DNA of 64,000 bases from Eledone cirrhosa (lineage: Eukaryota), in contig OZ024740.1 in assembly GCA_964016885.1 (NCBI GenBank), positions 111,042,001 to 111,106,000 on the forward strand, written 5' to 3'. Made by a program: the position numbers and the translations under genes. The notes beneath the pieces were generated by a model. It saw only the letters and a program-made list of their open reading frames with translations, ran no database searches and had not been told where the DNA came from. Numbering within the stretch: the first letter of the stretch is position 1; every line of letters begins with the position of its first letter. Shown here piece after piece: positions 1-63,520 of the stretch.

Positions 1-183
1 TAGGTCTTCAAAATGTTTATTATAAACATACAGAATATTTTCGAATATTCTATGTCTATATTCACATATATATCGCTATTTCAGAGCATTTATTCCAATT
101 TCTAATTTCTGCCGGACCGGCAACCGCTCTTTCAAACCAGTTCCTGTACACAGCTAAGTATTCTATAAGTCTCTAGCTGTGTC

Positions 184-272
184 ATTCTCGATAAAAGCAC
201 TGGATATGTAGTCCTGATGATTTCTAACGAGAATGAAACGCGTAGATTACTTCCCTTGCTTTTATCGAGAAT
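184..272 (+). ncRNA. Type I hammerhead ribozyme (310-bp unit, copy 1)
   Basis: Stem I GTAGTC(208-213)/GATTAC(245-250), extended by ATTCTCGATAAAAGCA/TGCTTTTATCGAGAAT; core CTGATGA 214-220; stem II TTCT-aacg-AGAA; GAAA 235-238; palindromic stem III ACGCGT; predicted cleavage after GUA at 244. Confidence 0.9.
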
Positions 273-493
273 CTAATTGTAATACGTGACGTATTCTATT
301 CTATAGCGATTAGGTCTTCAAAATGTTTATTATAAACATACAGAATATTTTCGAATATTCTATGTCTATATTCACATATATATCGCTATTTCAGAGCATT
401 TATTCCAATTTCTAATTTCTGCCGGACCGGCAACCGCTCTTTCAAACCAGTTCCTGTACACAGCTAAGTATTCTATAAGTCTCTAGCTGTGTC

Positions 494-582
494 ATTCTCG
501 ATAAAAGCACTGGATATGTAGTCCTGATGATTTCTAACGAGAATGAAACGCGTAGATTACTTCCCTTGCTTTTATCGAGAAT
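494..582 (+). ncRNA. Type I hammerhead ribozyme (310-bp unit, copy 2)
   Basis: Same as copy 1; CTGATGA at 524. Confidence 0.9.
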
Positions 583-803
583 CTAATTGTAATACGTGAC
601 GTATTCTATTCTATAGCGATTAGGTCTTCAAAATGTTTATTATAAACATACAGAATATTTTCGAATATTCTATGTCTATATTCACATATATATCGCTATT
701 TCAGAGCATTTATTCCAATTTCTAATTTCTGCCGGACCGGCAACCGCTCTTTCAAACCAGTTCCTGTACACAGCTAAGTATTCTATAAGTCTCTAGCTGT
801 GTC

Positions 804-892
804 ATTCTCGATAAAAGCACTGGATATGTAGTCCTGATGATTTCTAACGAGAATGAAACGCGTAGATTACTTCCCTTGCTTTTATCGAGAAT
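804..892 (+). ncRNA. Type I hammerhead ribozyme (310-bp unit, copy 3)
   Basis: Same as copy 1; CTGATGA at 834. Confidence 0.9.
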
Positions 893-1027
893 CTAATTGT
901 AATACGTGACGTATTCTATTCTATAGCGATTAGGTCTTCAAAATGTTTATTATAAACATACAGAATATTTTCGAATATTCTATGTCTATATTCACATATA
1001 TATCGCTATTTCAGAGCATTTATTCCA

Positions 1028-1108
<81 letters not shown>

Positions 1109-6007: not shown

Positions 6008-6049
<42 letters not shown>

Positions 6050-6050
<1 letters not shown>

Positions 6051-6330
6051 CAAAACATTACAATAATTCCGGAAGCCGAAAAAGAAATAGAACTAGGAAT
6101 ATATTATGGTTCGCTCCTCCTTTCTCACTAAATATTAAAACCCCTATTGCTAAACTATTCTTTAAAGTTCTTGACAAACGCTTCCTTAGAACACATAGAT
6201 ATTATTCAATTTTTAATAGACATACTATAAAATTAACTTACTCTTCCACCAAAAATTTAGCGCAAAATATTAATAGAATTAATAATAGAAATTTAAAACC
6301 TAACCAAAATACCAATAATAACCCAAGCAA
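6050..6330 (+). pseudogene. Penelope-like element ORF fragment (RT-endonuclease linker)
   Basis: Translates RKRNRTRNILWFAPPFSLNIKTPIAKLFFKVLDKRF...IFNRHTIKLTYSST, homologous to the 22584-24023 ORF (WYNAPSNL...ILNRSTVKFSYST). Confidence 0.8.
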
Positions 6331-6680
6331 TATTCAATCACGTGACATCGAGGTTAATCAGTGAGGAGTGGTTTGTTAAGAAGACAGCAGCCGAACCATT
6401 ACTATGAACTATAGTAGCAGTTTTGACCAATTTTGGCTCAACAAAATAATTTGGAGATAATTATAAAGAATTAGTATATCTACTAACATATATATACACA
6501 CCTCACTGATTAACCTCGATGTCACGTTATTGATTCTTTTGAATTTGCCACCGACGCAGTAGGCAGTGATTTTTTCAATGGCTTGGAACTTAGTCCGCGC
6601 TTTGCTTTTTTCCATCCACTGAATTATTTTTGTATAAATTCCCTGTGTCCACGCATCGCCTGGAAACTTAGCTGAGAATA

Positions 6681-6763
6681 GACTTCCCTGATGACGAAAG
6701 GCTTCTCCGTACGTTTCTTCGGAAACTATGTTTATTCCCTTTCAGAAACCAATTAGTTGGAGT
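6681..6763 (+). ncRNA. Hammerhead ribozyme with extended stem II (PLE-like terminus; same family as 28573)
   Basis: GACTTCC-CTGATGA(6688)-cGAAAGG...CCTTTCa-GAAA(6745)-CCAATTAG-TT-GGAGT; followed by a tail ending in (TA)n. Confidence 0.7.
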
Positions 6764-6811
6764 GAAATTTTAGTAAGTAAATTAATTTTTATAATTTTCT
6801 TATTTTATGTC

Positions 6812-6871
<60 letters not shown>

Positions 6872-8684: not shown

Positions 8685-10444
<1,760 letters not shown>

Positions 10445-10445
10445 T

Positions 10446-12360
10446 ATGGGAGTCTATCTCCAAAACCTTCTATCTACTAACGAGCATATTTTCAATGACC
10501 ATTCCACTTATTACAATGAAGCTCTTGCTCGGAGTGGATTTGTCGATAAGGTAGCATATACAGAGTACGAAAATAGACCTAGAAGAAATAGATCCCGTCG
10601 CATTTGTTGGTATAACCCACCATATAATATGGAGGTGGCCACACCATTAGCTAAGATTTTTCTTTCCCTTATTACGAAGCATTTTTCCCCCTACACATAA
10701 ATATAGTAACATTTTTAATAGAAATACTATTAAAATTTCTTACTCTACGACTCCTAACCTTTCATATAACATCACAGCTTCAAATTTAGCTAAACTACCT
10801 AGCCGTAGGAACACGTACAACCCTTTAGTTAGTACTAACTGTAATTGTAGGAATCGGGTTGATTACCCCCTATCAGGGAAATGCCTCTCTAGTAACATTG
10901 TCTACAAATGTAAGGTTGAAACACCCACGTCCCGTAGGGCCTACATAGGGTTAACCGCCAATAGATTCAAGCAGCGTATTTACATGCATACCCATTCTTT
11001 TCGTTGCCCTCTAAGAAGGAATATGACGTTACTTTCAGCTTATATCTGGAGTCTAAAAGACAACCACACCCAATATAAGTTACACTGGGAGATCCTAGCT
11101 AGGGCTAGATCGTATAACGGAAATAAAAGACCAGGTGACCTCTGCGCCCGTGAGGCCCTGGAAATACTCTACGCCACAGACCACATCTTAAACAAAAAAT
11201 ATGAGGCAATTTCGGCTTGTAAACATAAATTGCACAAAACTTTCCTGTATTACAGCCCCACGTTATACCCTAAAGAATAGTACGATCTATACGTGGATAT
11301 TTTACGTCTTGATGTGGTAGCTAAGTATATGTTTTGTTTATACCATTACTTATTTGCATTGGTAAGTATATATTACCTGTATGTTTTGTGAAGGTACGTA
11401 TACTTTCTCGTACGTATATTTGATTGTATATGTTATGGCGTATAATTTTATATATTCTGGTACGTATGGTTTGGTTATGTGTATACGGGAGTTTTGCGTC
11501 TGTGTGAGTATGCAGGTTCGTACGTATATAGGGTGTGTGTATATGTGTACTTCATGTTTTGGTTGCCTTACGTCTCCGAACATTTGTGTATTTACATGTA
11601 GGTATGTGTGTGCGCTTGTTATATACGTATTTATTTATTTATATACGTTTATTTAATTATTTATTTCTTTGTATACACGCATACACACACATATTTATAT
11701 GTGCGTGGTTTTGTATACCTATGGTAAGTGTTTTCGCGTATGCTTGTGTATGTACGTATTTGTATGCCTGTATGTATTTATTTAATTTCTATTACCTCTG
11801 TATTGTATTTATTTACTTTGTTCTTAACTCTGAAGCGGAAATTCATTCGGTCTCCTAGTTAGAATTTTAGTCTACGACTTCTGCTATACCATTTACGTGG
11901 TTTTGTCTTTGCGTGCAATTGTTCTCCACGCTCCACATATGACGTATTATCTTCGTTTTTTTTGTTCATTGCCAGAGAAGGTCTCTATGAACCACCTAAG
12001 AGAACATTAATCTACGACCTCTTTTATACCATAAACGTGGTTCTGTCTTTGCGCGTAATTGTTTTTCACCGCTCCTATTAATGACGTATTATATTCGTTA
12101 TTTCCCGTTCTTTGCCAGGGAACGTTTCCACGAACCAAAGTATCGTCTTCCTGTCTTCTTCCGGTTGCAACGTTTTTTTAAATATCCACTTCTGCGTTTA
12201 CAGATTGACTTTGTTAGTTTCAGAAGATCCCGTTAAGGGTGAAAGCAGCGATTCTTTGCTTAAACTTTATTCTGTTATTTTAATAAATATTTGCTCTACG
12301 GTTCTTATATATTTGATATATATTTATCCTTATCGAGCCCTCTTTGGATTTTAGTCTTCA
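10446..12360 (+). mobile_element. 5'-truncated Penelope-like element: frameshifted RT thumb plus GIY-YIG to 11280, then 3' region
   Basis: WYNPPYN motif, CNCRN...CLSSNIVYKC...AYIGLT, DLCARE...LNKKYE...CKH; degenerate HHR-like CAGAAGA-TCCC...GGGT-GAAA at about 12221-12244; ends in (TA)n. Confidence 0.88.
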
Positions 12361-12373
12361 AATTTATTATTAT

Positions 12374-12404
<31 letters not shown>

Positions 12405-12411
<7 letters not shown>

Positions 12412-13647
12412 GTTTGTATATGTATAATAAAGCCAAAACAATGCAGGTATGGACATAGAATAAAGAATGCAAATGCAAAAGATATTGTTGACGATTAGTC
12501 TTTTACCTTAGATTTATTTAAATGTCCTTAATTTTCGAGATAATATCTCTTCTACGGAGGGAAGTAAAGCGGTTAAACCAGTGTTATAAATAGCTTGCCA
12601 AGACATGCTGACAGGAAATGGTATAGAGTATCTGTTCTATCTCTAATGTCAAAGAGTTAAGGTTAGGTGGATAAAGAGTAGTCGCCTTTTAAAACGTTTT
12701 TTTTTTCGTACATGCCTGTTTAAGTGTGTGGGAGAATGCGTGAATGTGTAAGTATGTGTGTGTGTGAGTGTGAGAAGATATGTCTATACGTAAATGTGGG
12801 GGATAGATGTTCTCTCGTGTTAGAACTGGTCTTTGTGTGTGTATGTGTGTGTGTGAGAGAGAATAATTGGAAGTGTAAGCGTGTGTGTGTGCGTGTGTGT
12901 GGGAGGGGGGTGTAAATACGGGGCTAGATGCTCTATCAAGTTATAAATTGGGTGTTGAGTTCTAGTCTATTATTGATTGGTGGTTGTATTTTGTCTATAA
13001 TTAGTGCTTCCTTAATTCTAAGATTGCCGAGGTTTCTTTCCTTAGTTTCTATCCTAACTGTTATGGTTTTGTCGGTGTTTTTGCATTTAACTAGGTGTTT
13101 CTTAAATGAGGAAGCGTTAGTATTGAGATGTTCTTTTATTCTTATGTGGAGTGGTCTGGTGGTGCTACCTACGTAGAAGTTGCTGCATTTGTCGCACTCT
13201 AGTATGTATACAACGTAAGCCTGGTGGCATTGGTCTGTGTCGTTGATGGGGCAGTTGGCTAGCCTGCAGCGGTTGTCATGTATGGTGGAGTGTCTTTTGG
13301 TTAGCTGTCCGCGTAGAGAATGACCTGAGTGGGCCAGTTGAATATCTAGTCCCTCTCGTTTGAAAGCTCTGCGGATGGCTGTTGTTGTTTCGTCACTGAA
13401 GTGTGGGAGCTTCAGGAAGCAAGTGTTAGTGCCTCGGCTGTGGTGTCCTCTGTTCTTTCTGGCACGGTTTGTGGTAGATGTCGTGTATCCGTCCAGTTTG
13501 AGTACTTCTTGGAAATGTGTGGTGTGTGTGTCTCGGTCTCTAGCGTCGGTGCATTTGTTCCGGATACGTGTAAGTTCGTTCCTTATGTATCGGAACTTAG
13601 CGCCGGCTGGGAGTGTACGAACAGGTCCCTGCTGGCGGCTTTTTTTA
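12405..13647 (-). mobile_element. 5'-truncated Penelope-like element of a second lineage; thumb plus GIY-YIG ORF ends at 12936 (absent from ORF track)
   Basis: Minus translation ...FLKLPHFSD...CRLANCPINDTDQCHQAYVVYILECDKCSNFYVGSTTRPLHIRIKEH...LRIKEALIIDKIQPPINNRLE; tail-to-tail with the 10446 element. Confidence 0.9.
12525..12560 (-). ncRNA. Degenerate minimal hammerhead in the PLE 3' end
   Basis: Minus: CCT-CCGTAGA-a-GAGAT-att-ATCTC-GAAA-AT-TA-AGG; core deviates from CTGANGA at two positions. Confidence 0.5.
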
Positions 13648-13893
13648 ATATATATATATATTATAAATCACGGTTATCTGGCATTAAATGTGTGCAAAAT
13701 GTTCTGCCAACATCAAATTACGATACAGTCCCAACTAAGAAATCCCGTGAAATATTTACACATGTACGTCTACATATAGATATTGAAACAGACCCACAAA
13801 ATGCGTATCATACTTAAAGTCAACAGTGCACAATATAGAAAACTTACATACAGAACATATATACAGCAATATAAAGGTACATATATATGTATC

Positions 13894-13976
<83 letters not shown>

Positions 13977-14202
13977 ATGATGCGTATATATGTACCTTAT
14001 ATATATCTAAGGCGGGTAAAATTCCCGAGATCCATGGACGAGTTCTCTCCCGCGGTCTCTGTCCCTCATTATCGCTGCCATGTCCTGTATACAGATTGGA
14101 GCACTCGACGAAGTACGCAGGTTTGTTTGGTTACTCCGGAGTAATGTAAAATACAGTAAATAAGTCAAATATTTAAAATTTGGCTTCGTTTATTAAAGAT
14201 GT

Positions 14203-59077: not shown

Positions 59078-59600
59078 TAAACGGAAAAAACGAAACAAAA
59101 TTTCATTTCTCACTCTTAGTACGGCTGTTACTTAAATATAAGTATGTATACGTACATACATATATGTATACACACGTACAGTAGTATGTATATATATATA
59201 CATACATGCACACACATATATATATGTACGTATGGATTCACCGAACATTTATTATAATGCTCGGTGTGTTTGTAAACAAACATCCCGTATTAAGCCGTAC
59301 AGTGTCTAGCAACCATCGTTGCTCATTTGTTCAACACTGACAAAGGAACGTTGTACTAGTTTCAAGCTTATTAGCTATCGTCAGCAACTTATACCTTCCT
59401 GCCAGCTGATTGAACGTCTGATTGAGTCGTTTTCTTCCTCGCTTTGTAAATACCATTTTTTCCAAACTGATATTGAGGAAGGTAGTTGTATAAACTAGCA
59501 GAAAAACCACCCATCGGGTGGTTTTTGGCATATTGATATTATACGCAAGTATATATGAAAGTATATATGCATGTAGATATGATACATCAAATAAAATCGT
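59078..59600 (-). mobile_element. Diverged relative of the 469-bp HHR unit
   Basis: Left end AACGAAAC.AAATTTC like 29970/49715; AGGAACGTTGTACTAGTTTC aligns with AGGAATATTGAACTAGTTTC; right boundary approximate. Confidence 0.6.
59350..59388 (-). ncRNA. Type I hammerhead ribozyme
   Basis: Minus: GTTG-CTGACGA-tAGCT-aata-AGCTt-GAAA-CTAG-TA-CAAC. Confidence 0.85.
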
Positions 59601-60795: not shown

Positions 60796-61694
60796 CTAGC
60801 AGTAAAGCCCGGCGTTGCTCGGGGTCGCTCAGTAGCTGTGTTAAAGTTACAATGTTAAGTTTCTTTCTTGGCTTAAAAACTGTAGTGTCTACTGTGCAGA
60901 CTTGCATGTGGTGTTTTTGATTAATATTCCCTCAACCAACAATATGCCTTATGAAGTTAAGAAAACATAACGATAACCCGAATGTTATAACAAAAGAGGA
61001 TGCTGGGGATAAAAACTGCACCGGTTATTTATTAACAAAGATCGAAAATGTAAACACTGCAACGCAGAGAAAAACATTAGCGTAACCAAATTATCAGTTA
61101 TGTCTGTCTGCACGCCTATATCACCTCTCTGCACGACTGTCTGTCTGCACGCCTATATCACCTCTCTGCACGACTCTCTGTCTGCACGCGTATATCACCT
61201 CTCTGCACGACTATCTGTCTGCACGCGTATATCACCTCTCTGCACGACTATCTGTCTGCACGACTGTCTGTCTGCACGCCTAACGAAATTTACAGATACA
61301 TATATTTTAAATAAACTTATATAATTTTTGCTTTTTTTTTACGAAATATTTGCTTGTTTTACGTAGTCTTTAAATATACTTGTTTTCAAGTAAAAATATT
61401 GTTTTAAAAGGCTTCGCTGAGAAAGCCAGCGTAATATTTTTAATTTTTGCACGCAGACGCTCAATGTAAACAGAACAAAGGGAAATAACTGATCACTTAC
61501 GCTCAAAAATCGATACATTATATTCGATTTCGTCACATAGGGCGGGTCAATTTGAAATATTTTTTTCCGATGTCTTCGCTAGGGCTCAATGTACAAGTAT
61601 AGCAATTTCGGTGCAATTCCGTGAGAGATTCTAAGAGGAGATGTGTGCAAAAAATCGATAGACAGACAGACAACCACAGTTTTATATATATAGA
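60796..61694 (-). mobile_element. Non-autonomous Helitron (899 bp) with internal 35-bp minisatellite at about 61100-61280
   Basis: Minus strand starts TCTATA, ends CCCGAGCAACGCCGGG hairpin ...CTAG; inserted between A and T with no TSD, as shown by the empty site in the upstream duplicate. Confidence 0.9.
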
Positions 61695-63198: not shown

Positions 63199-63202
<4 letters not shown>

Positions 63203-63514
63203 TAGGATTGGTGTTCTGAAATACCGATGTATACATGAGTGTATGTATAGTATATTTGGCAATATACCGTATGTTTAATTAAAAACATTTTGAAGACCTC
63301 ATTTTTAAAGTTGTGAATATGTCACGTACTTCTTTATTCGGCAAAAGAAGGGAGAGAAGCTGACAGATTCTGTTTCACGCTGTTGGCGATCCTCGCCTTT
63401 GCCGAAAATTATAGAAGTAAGTGACATAGTCACTACTTTAAAAGTGATAGCGCAAGGTCTTCAAAATGTTTTTAATTAAACATACATTATATTGCCCAAT
63501 ATACTATACATACA

Positions 63515-63520
<6 letters not shown>
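63199..63520. mobile_element. Inverted pair of a diverged relative of the 310-bp unit with a truncated hammerhead on the minus arm
   Basis: Minus: CGAGGA-tCGC-caaca-GCGt-GAAA-CAGAATCTG-TC, then TACGTGAC.TATTC...AGGTCTTCAAAATGTTT...AAACATAC...TATTTCAGA as in the 310-bp unit; (TA)n flanks. Confidence 0.75.

Follow-up and report, generated by a model that had tools for sequence, protein, structure and literature searches.

The window, i.e. the whole 64-kb stretch of DNA that was analysed, is microsatellite-rich animal DNA in which perfect (TA)6 or longer runs make up 13.7%, and it opens with a tandem array of 310-bp units. Tandem Repeats Finder delimits this array on the plus strand to positions 1-1029, with a period of 310, 3.3 copies and 100% matches, the copy number being a minimum because the array passes the left window edge. 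An initial annotation of the locus had likewise reported at least 3.3 identical 310-bp units with a (TA)n end; units and (TA)n end are indeed present, while the periodicity stops after position 1029 and not after 1028 as annotated. Directly 3' of this right (TA)n junction at 1029, the flank consists of (AT)13 at 1028-1053, followed by (TG)26.5 at 1053-1105. The unit itself has a GC content of 34.5%, and the longest ORF in a six-unit concatemer comprises 30 aa on the plus strand and 17 aa on the minus strand. Neither a reverse transcriptase (RT)-endonuclease ORF within 1-1029 nor a tRNA gene in the 64-kb window was found, and a bacterial promoter scan, a type of scan not apt for animal DNA, returned 6 hits compared to 5.4 by chance. 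The main features are compiled in Table 1.

The annotated presence of a type I hammerhead ribozyme in every unit is borne out by a motif descriptor, which matches at 214, 524 and 834, i.e. complete motifs start in three consecutive units, while only 2 of 20,000 dinucleotide-shuffled units match it. In copy 1, a 6-bp helix I (208-213/245-250) encloses the core segments CUGAUGA (214-220) and GAAA (235-238) as well as a 4-bp helix II (222-225/230-233), and cleavage is predicted to take place after A244. Two further traits had not been annotated before: a U221·U234 mismatch at the base of helix II and a palindromic helix III of only 2 bp (A238-U243, C239-G242) with a 2-nt loop, which is too short for a monomer. 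The palindrome in question, ACGCGU at 238-243, is able to pair at 6 of its 6 positions with 548-553 of the next copy, giving helix III of a double hammerhead with a computed duplex energy of about -9.5 kcal/mol. Because helix III has only 2 bp and is palindromic, the array hammerhead would likely cut as a two-copy (dimeric) hammerhead. Its anatomy agrees with that given for canonical metazoan type I hammerheads, in which helices I, II and III comprise 6, 4 and 1-2 bp, respectively, and a palindromic helix III loop makes a second copy necessary, the ribozyme being active as dimer (PMC4209133). A reading of the U·U mismatch as a defect was dropped, since the same mismatch is present in Hydra-clade families, 14 of 25 by our count by eye in File S2 of PMC8557442. 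In the computed ensemble, helix II forms rarely, its pairs having a probability of only 0.13-0.15. At gathering score, Rfam returned no matches in the whole window and, thus, did not call a hammerhead; with E up to 10, neither a hammerhead nor another ribozyme was among the 12 chance-level matches in 1-1100. On the minus strand of 1-1029, the descriptor found no hammerhead.

For the remainder of the unit, a 16-bp distal stem I extension beyond an internal loop and three hairpins had been annotated. The distal stem is real, as 14 of its 16 pairs reach a probability of at least 0.97 in the circular monomer (184-199/257-272), whereas the internal loop is split into two small loops by a 3-bp helix (202-204/252-254, p ~0.9) between the distal stem and helix I. 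All three hairpins are present in the minimum free energy (MFE) fold. Folded as a circular 310-nt monomer, as the annotation had proposed, the unit gives a z score of -4.6 (60 shuffles) with 60% of its bases paired, and z = -3.45 when folded as linear unit. An alternative 9-bp helix (182-190/228-236) is predicted to block the core in the nascent transcript until 257-272 has been made.

Table 1 Main features of the window (positions refer to the window)
Feature	Position	Strand	Remarks
Tandem array of 310-bp units	1..1029	+	3.3 or more copies, 100% identity; left end beyond the window edge
Type I hammerhead, copy 1	208..250	+	found by descriptor; 2-bp palindromic helix III at 238-243; predicted cut after A244
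Hammerhead, copy 2	518..560	+	predicted cut after 554
Hammerhead, copy 3	828..870	+	predicted to cut after 864; 165 nt from there to the (TA)n junction downstream
Distal stem I extension	184..272	+	16 bp (184-199/257-272) plus 3 bp (202-204/252-254), in every unit
Alternative 9-bp helix 182-190/228-236	182..236	+	in MFE folds of truncated transcripts
Double hairpin	943..981 (943-959, 962-981); also 323-361, 633-671	+	candidate signal for a Penelope-like reverse transcriptase
~35-nt tail	995..1029	+	follows the short end point, at which the related ends stop (63519, 34513)
(TA)13(TG)26 microsatellite	1028..1105	+	likely insertion target
5'-truncated Hydra-clade Penelope-like element	10404..12377	+	ORF to 11277; hammerhead 12221-12261, 116 nt before (TA)n
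5'-truncated Hydra-clade Penelope-like ORF	22547..24020	+	end of RT, CxCX5C linker, endonuclease; starts at a (TA)n run
Third related 3' end	34383..34513	+	tail absent, then (TA)n
Sister-family inverted arm	63199..63396	-	hammerhead remnant (U·U, 4-bp helix III), double hairpin, tail, then (TA)n
Sister-family direct arm	63385..63519	+	tail absent, then (TA)n

The origin of the unit is best approached from its 3' end. Ten other (TA)n-flanked ends in the window were aligned to positions 820-1029 and compared with 500 shuffles each, and three of them are clearly homologous. The inverted arm at 63199-63396 (-) shares 136 of 187 aligned bases with 836-1029 (z 23.2), while 90 of 118 bases are identical in 63385-63519 (+; z 15.3) and 84 of 112 in 34383-34513 (+; z 9.5), all three scoring above 500 of 500 shuffles. 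By blastn with dust on, the unit matches a related end in the window over 133 bp at 73.7% (E 5e-17). From the ribozyme core to the array end, the unit is about 73% identical to the inverted, (TA)n-flanked remnant at 63.2-63.5 kb, the two arms of which form an inverted pair between (TA)n runs, with most of the hammerhead kept in the left arm. Moreover, the array ends within 2 nt of the end of this inverted arm; the ends at 63519 and 34513 stop 35 nt earlier. Two ends of a 469-bp hammerhead family and an end at 59 kb reach z 3.6-6.7, with the likeness running from the ribozyme onward, and the four other ends do not score. The 3' ends of the ORF-bearing elements of the window are among those rejected: the Hydra-type end at 12200-12377 is ruled out as direct parent of the unit (z 0.6) and 6670-6815 as a related end (z -0.2), the same alignment also ruling out 37300-37430 (z 0.9) and 14050-14270 (z 1.5).

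Within the 64-kb window, the 310-bp family is represented by one locus accompanied by three diverged sister ends, and because these sister ends have diverged, the family is old in this lineage. The annotated independence of the family is not supported in a wider sense, as the unit corresponds to the 3' end of what is probably a Hydra-clade Penelope-like lineage with diverged relatives in the same window. It is distinct from the 469-bp array, as annotated: the best local alignment of the two units is weak (score 65 compared to 31.5 +/- 5.6 in shuffles), and in the end-to-end comparison their likeness starts at the ribozyme.

Just before the short end point, the four related ends share a double hairpin. 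In their alignment, 55 of 56 cells are paired and 3 of 14 pairs exhibit a compensatory change; 12 of 500 shuffles scored as high, and slid controls were 29-57% paired. As the comparison comprises four related sequences and the structure was read from those same sequences, the covariation is suggestive of a double hairpin conserved at this position. An RNA model built from the four ends gave strong matches to its own members only, and a weak one at 37349-37423 (E 0.0045, a rough value). The latter lies within a segment at 37154-37430 (+) that carries, 233 nt before (TA)n, a hammerhead whose core shows one change and whose helix II has 8 bp. At 59225-59400 (-), 154 nt from (TA)n, there is also a solitary hammerhead, which has a U·U core and a palindromic helix III and belongs to another family.

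The 469-bp family occupies two loci (29966-34309 and 49709-50702) that are 95% identical, each consisting of an inverted arm and tandem units between TA-rich flanks. Its helix III is a 6-nt palindrome, too. The ends of these loci differ by 66-70 nt (unit positions 49-52 compared to 118-119), which exceeds the 30-40-bp tail of Penelope-like elements (PLEs).

Coding remnants of PLEs are present in the same window. With a profile of 30 long homologues, three Hydra-type ORF fragments were located at 6059-6334, 10470-11238 and 22547-24005. Among 30 homologues of at least 660 aa retrieved for the ORF at 22584-24020, DKT occurs in 29 and RWK in 19, and the ORF itself contains CxCX5C; all three are marks of the Hydra clade according to PMC8557442, which also lists Hydra-1_Obim from Octopus bimaculoides as one of its families. 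Pfam gave no name to two of the Hydra ORFs. The ORF at 22584-24020 stays open for 479 codons, yet it includes an Asn/Lys/Thr-rich stretch of about 100 aa after the RT part. The hammerhead at 12221-12261 features a U·U core and one core change, and two imperfect copies of about 135 bp can be discerned by eye at 11875-12120, in the 3' UTR of this Hydra element just upstream of its hammerhead. At 6048-6815 (+), a short Hydra-type ORF fragment is followed by an internal inverted segment as well as, at 6688, a hammerhead-like core failing the descriptor. Another type of PLE is represented by a fragment at 12939-14260 (-), in which Pfam recognises a GIY-YIG domain and which is preceded by a hammerhead-like motif at 14252. 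Altogether, the U·U core recurs in four hammerhead families of the window, namely those at 214, 12221 and 59384 and the remnant at 63 kb.

Taking these results together, we consider the array to be probably a non-autonomous retrozyme whose source was the 3' end of a Hydra-clade PLE and which would be cut by pairs of hammerheads and copied back into (TA)n by the enzymes of that element. The annotation as retrozyme is supported by the anatomy, i.e. tandem 310-bp units with a canonical type I hammerhead each, low GC content and no ORF beyond 30 aa. Retrozymes of this kind are described as 150-450-bp tandem repeats of low GC content devoid of LTR, PBS and PPT (PMC7229834), and the array shows a head-to-tail unit in this size range, hammerheads in at least two consecutive units, low GC content, non-coding sequence and co-occurrence with PLEs. 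It resembles the metazoan non-LTR retrozymes of the same paper, e.g. those of Mytilus (350-390 bp) and the axolotl elements Rtz_331 and Rtz_353, in size range, one hammerhead per unit, low GC content, lack of an ORF and a structured monomer. The axolotl motifs are of particular use for comparison: helix III of HHR_Amex1 is weak and palindromic, HHR_Amex2 carries a U·U at the helix II base, and as monomers these weak-helix-III and U·U motifs cut 6% and 22%, respectively, in one hour, both working better as dimers (PMC7229834). The array motif differs from either by joining both weak features, the 2-bp palindromic helix III and the U·U.

The link to the Hydra clade is provided by the hammerhead on the sense strand close to the 3' end, with its cut site 165 nt away from that end, the U·U core and the insertion into (TA)n, all of them shared with the 3' ends or pseudo-LTRs of Hydra-clade PLEs; Hydra elements insert almost exclusively in (TA)n (PMC8557442). 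Section 6 of the same paper describes PLE insertions with an inverted arm and a one-sided 30-40-bp tail. Here, inverted arm and one-sided tail are both seen in the sister element at 63199-63519, in keeping with this pattern; on the array, which is open at the left, the 35-nt tail is found. In contrast to an autonomous Hydra-clade PLE, no ORF with RT, linker and endonuclease lies within 1-1029 or is attached to the array in the window, and helix III is a 6-nt palindrome instead of 3-4 bp. None of the 25 Hydra hammerheads listed in File S2 of PMC8557442 has a 2-bp palindromic helix III when inspected by eye, and the Hydra consensus sequences of the supplement gave no hit to two exact motifs taken from the unit, although line breaks there could hide a match. 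Since no ORF-bearing element of the window shares the 3' end of the unit, the partner family is deduced from clade signatures rather than found.

The kinship of animal retrozymes to PLE termini has already been published. Vertebrate PLE-derived retrozymes (bioRxiv 10.64898/2026.07.22.740005) likewise consist of two or more successive units that bear complete type I hammerheads, are related to PLE terminal repeats and co-occur with PLEs. Their phylogenetic link was established in Xenopus, in which the widespread PLE clades are others than Hydra, while the array points to Hydra in an invertebrate; by its own statement, non-vertebrates are outside the tests of that study. The word octopus does not occur in the main text of PMC7229834. 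In our literature search, which covered titles and the beginnings of abstracts without most subscription papers, Repbase and preprint supplements, no entry describes the 310-bp unit or a cross-species retrozyme. What is added here is the specific Hydra-clade link in an invertebrate, a candidate end signal and the breadth across labelled organisms set out below.

If the retrozyme reading is correct, the following cycle can be envisaged. Read-through transcription of the array would yield a concatemer, in which neighbouring hammerheads would pair their ACGCGU palindromes into a 6-bp helix III; cuts after A244 and A554 would then release 310-nt monomers. A host ligase may close these into circles, which on their own would cut themselves poorly. 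For such monomers, circularisation by RtcB ligase has been described (PMC7229834). Subsequently, a Hydra-clade reverse transcriptase/endonuclease could nick (TA)n and start just 3' of the double hairpin, and by going round the circle or along the concatemer for several rounds, it would produce identical tandem copies with the tail at one end. The enzyme that moves animal retrozymes has so far only been proposed (bioRxiv 10.64898/2026.07.22.740005; PMC7229834), which makes the double hairpin a testable candidate recognition signal for the mobilising enzyme.

Three other explanations of the array have to be weighed. The recent amplification claimed in the initial annotation holds for this one array; a wider amplification does not follow, as identical copies could stem from one insertion. 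Accordingly, a single PLE 3' end might have been inserted and then amplified locally at the DNA level by unequal crossing-over or replication slippage, with the hammerhead as passenger and no circular RNA involved. Such a route is proposed in the discussion of bioRxiv 10.64898/2026.07.22.740005, where 1 of 9 predicted Xenopus retrozyme dimers was cut in vitro and 8 of 9 remained uncut, and recent unequal exchange would explain identical copies at the only 310-bp family locus of the window as well as rolling-circle copying does. The unit, however, does not stop at the PLE end point but joins back to the sequence upstream of the ribozyme, closing an exact ring of 310 nt, the same 310-nt ring recurs in runs under other labels, the 16-bp stem flanking the ribozyme is perfect, and the two ribozyme changes of the variant in run X18 (see below) affect loop II and the helix II base, the latter giving an A-U pair. 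We therefore regard local amplification without circular RNA as improbable compared with the retrozyme reading.

Still less probable in our view is that the array represents the tandem pseudo-LTR of an autonomous Hydra-clade element whose ORF is situated to the left of the window. The left end of the array does lie outside the window, hammerhead, tail and (TA)n target are all pseudo-LTR features, and retrozymes and pseudo-LTRs are close kin (bioRxiv 10.64898/2026.07.22.740005). Yet at least three exact, ORF-free units stand at the 3' end, and in 3 of 3 runs examined the unit assembled into a closed contig without a loose end, though assembly can drop rare branches.

Finally, the designation as viroid-like applies to the size of the unit and to nothing more. 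Hammerhead viroids and viroid-like circular RNAs share size and the double-hammerhead principle with the unit, and ribozymes in both polarities are the criterion for a hammerhead viroid-like replicon; the array differs by its ribozyme on one strand only, its integrated tandem DNA and its transposon-type ends. Despite the 310 nt, the 60% paired bases, the fold z score of -4.6 and the closed rings in other runs, an integrated autonomous viroid-like RNA replicon or an assembly artefact is thus highly improbable, given the minus strand devoid of a hammerhead, the lack of any other ribozyme family among the Rfam matches, the clear homology to native PLE-type ends, which share the end point, and the lack of a match to the unit in phage or plasmid records by blastn.

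The same unit recurs in public sequencing runs. Of 31 words sampled from it, 65-100% are held by 20 of 24 listed runs, which carry 18 coded organism labels; the studies behind these 20 runs number 17, or 16 if the possible source is left out, with dates from 2020-2025, and no RNA run is among the holders listed. Word shares of 0.65-1.00 correspond to about 4 to 0 substitutions per unit, and three runs of one sample all have a share of 0.94. Contigs were compared for three of the 20 holders (X2, X4 and X18) and reads for one raw-read run, in each case against a single unit without flanks. Each of the three holders yielded one contig (340, 331 and 340 nt, respectively) that goes back 310 bases onto itself, at depths of 6.7, 9.6 and 17.7, with no loose ends and no continuation into an ORF. 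Because a tandem array collapses in the same way, a closed contig is no sign of a circular molecule. While X2 and X4, representing two other organism labels, have no differences over the bases covered, X18 displays three changes, namely T221A (creating an A-U pair at the helix II base), G229A (loop II) and C375T. In X18, the contig is interrupted at 409, exactly where the window array gives way to (TA)n; this is a hint of integrated copies, albeit in one of three runs and noticed afterwards. X21 and X22, which share their sample with X18, contain next to none of the unit words, which is no proof of absence. In the raw Hi-C run X23 (organism A, 1.94 Gb, the organism itself not being shown in the run), no reads fell on the unit; for scale, 3.3 copies would give 0 reads with a probability of 0.005-0.5 for genomes of 2.5-10 Gb. 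Exact searches with the hammerhead pattern gave no match in IMG/VR, JGI metagenomes and GTDB contigs, nor did the end-motif pattern in JGI metagenomes and GTDB contigs, and blastn of the unit found none in plasmids or phages. Since the exact patterns are absent from JGI, GTDB and IMG/VR, the unit is not a common contaminant of those collections.

As the organism labels are coded, relatives, contamination and horizontal spread are inseparable as sources of these copies. An even chance may be given to copies residing in close relatives of the host, be it through shared recent ancestry or introgression. This would fit the graded shares from 1.00 to 0.65, the separate, fixed three-change haplotype of X18 with its hint of integrated copies at 409, and the diverged sister ends that make the family old in this lineage, but sits uneasily with the zero differences of X2 and X4 under two other labels and with retrozymes being described as species-specific in section 14 of PMC7229834.

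Somewhat unlikely, although to be reckoned with, is cross-contamination or DNA from prey or co-sampled organisms, where a few long or index-hopped tandem reads would collapse into a flankless ring. Exactly one such ring was obtained per examined run at a depth of 6.7-17.7, for which a single read of 7-18 copies would presumably suffice. Nevertheless, with 17 studies from 2020-2025, three same-sample runs agreeing at 0.94 and at least two haplotypes, several independent sources would be needed, and the exact patterns are absent from JGI metagenome, GTDB and IMG/VR contigs.

More speculative, and in our estimation unlikely, is that the 310-nt ring is a parasite of Hydra-clade PLEs which spreads horizontally between animal species and re-integrates into (TA)n in any host provided with a Hydra enzyme. 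The vehicle would then be a small circular RNA or a concatemer, and about 99-100% identity across many hosts would result. If so, this would be an animal retrozyme behaving like a transmissible viroid-like element. PMC7229834 describes retrozyme sequences as species-specific (section 14), from which the array unit differs by being near-identical under many organism labels, and this breadth would hence be unexpected if the labels stood for distant species. Should the 18 labels denote distant species, a near-identical ribozyme ring would be crossing host boundaries against the published species-specificity, and the connection of genomic retrozymes with infectious circular RNAs could be tested on it directly. 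Taken as a retrozyme alone, the array is ordinary and its value modest; beyond that, a retrozyme is connected here with a single PLE clade, Hydra, through its end point, tail, target and core signature.

Other repeats of the window are listed here for completeness. A non-LTR retrotransposon RT fragment (Pfam RVT_1) lies at 38219-39394 (+); among 120 matches listed, most of them unnamed, the named protein of highest identity belongs to Argonauta hians (65% identical, with 76% of the query covered). Further non-LTR retrotransposon fragments are located at 48316-48867 (-), unannotated and taken by us to be L1/Tx1-like, and at 58257-58784 (+), the latter with a C2H2 zinc-finger tail. One SINE in the window presumably resembles octopus SINEs, which together with the Argonauta match makes an octopod the likely host, and a 37-bp tandem repeat occupies 61103-61262 with 4.3 copies that are 97% identical.
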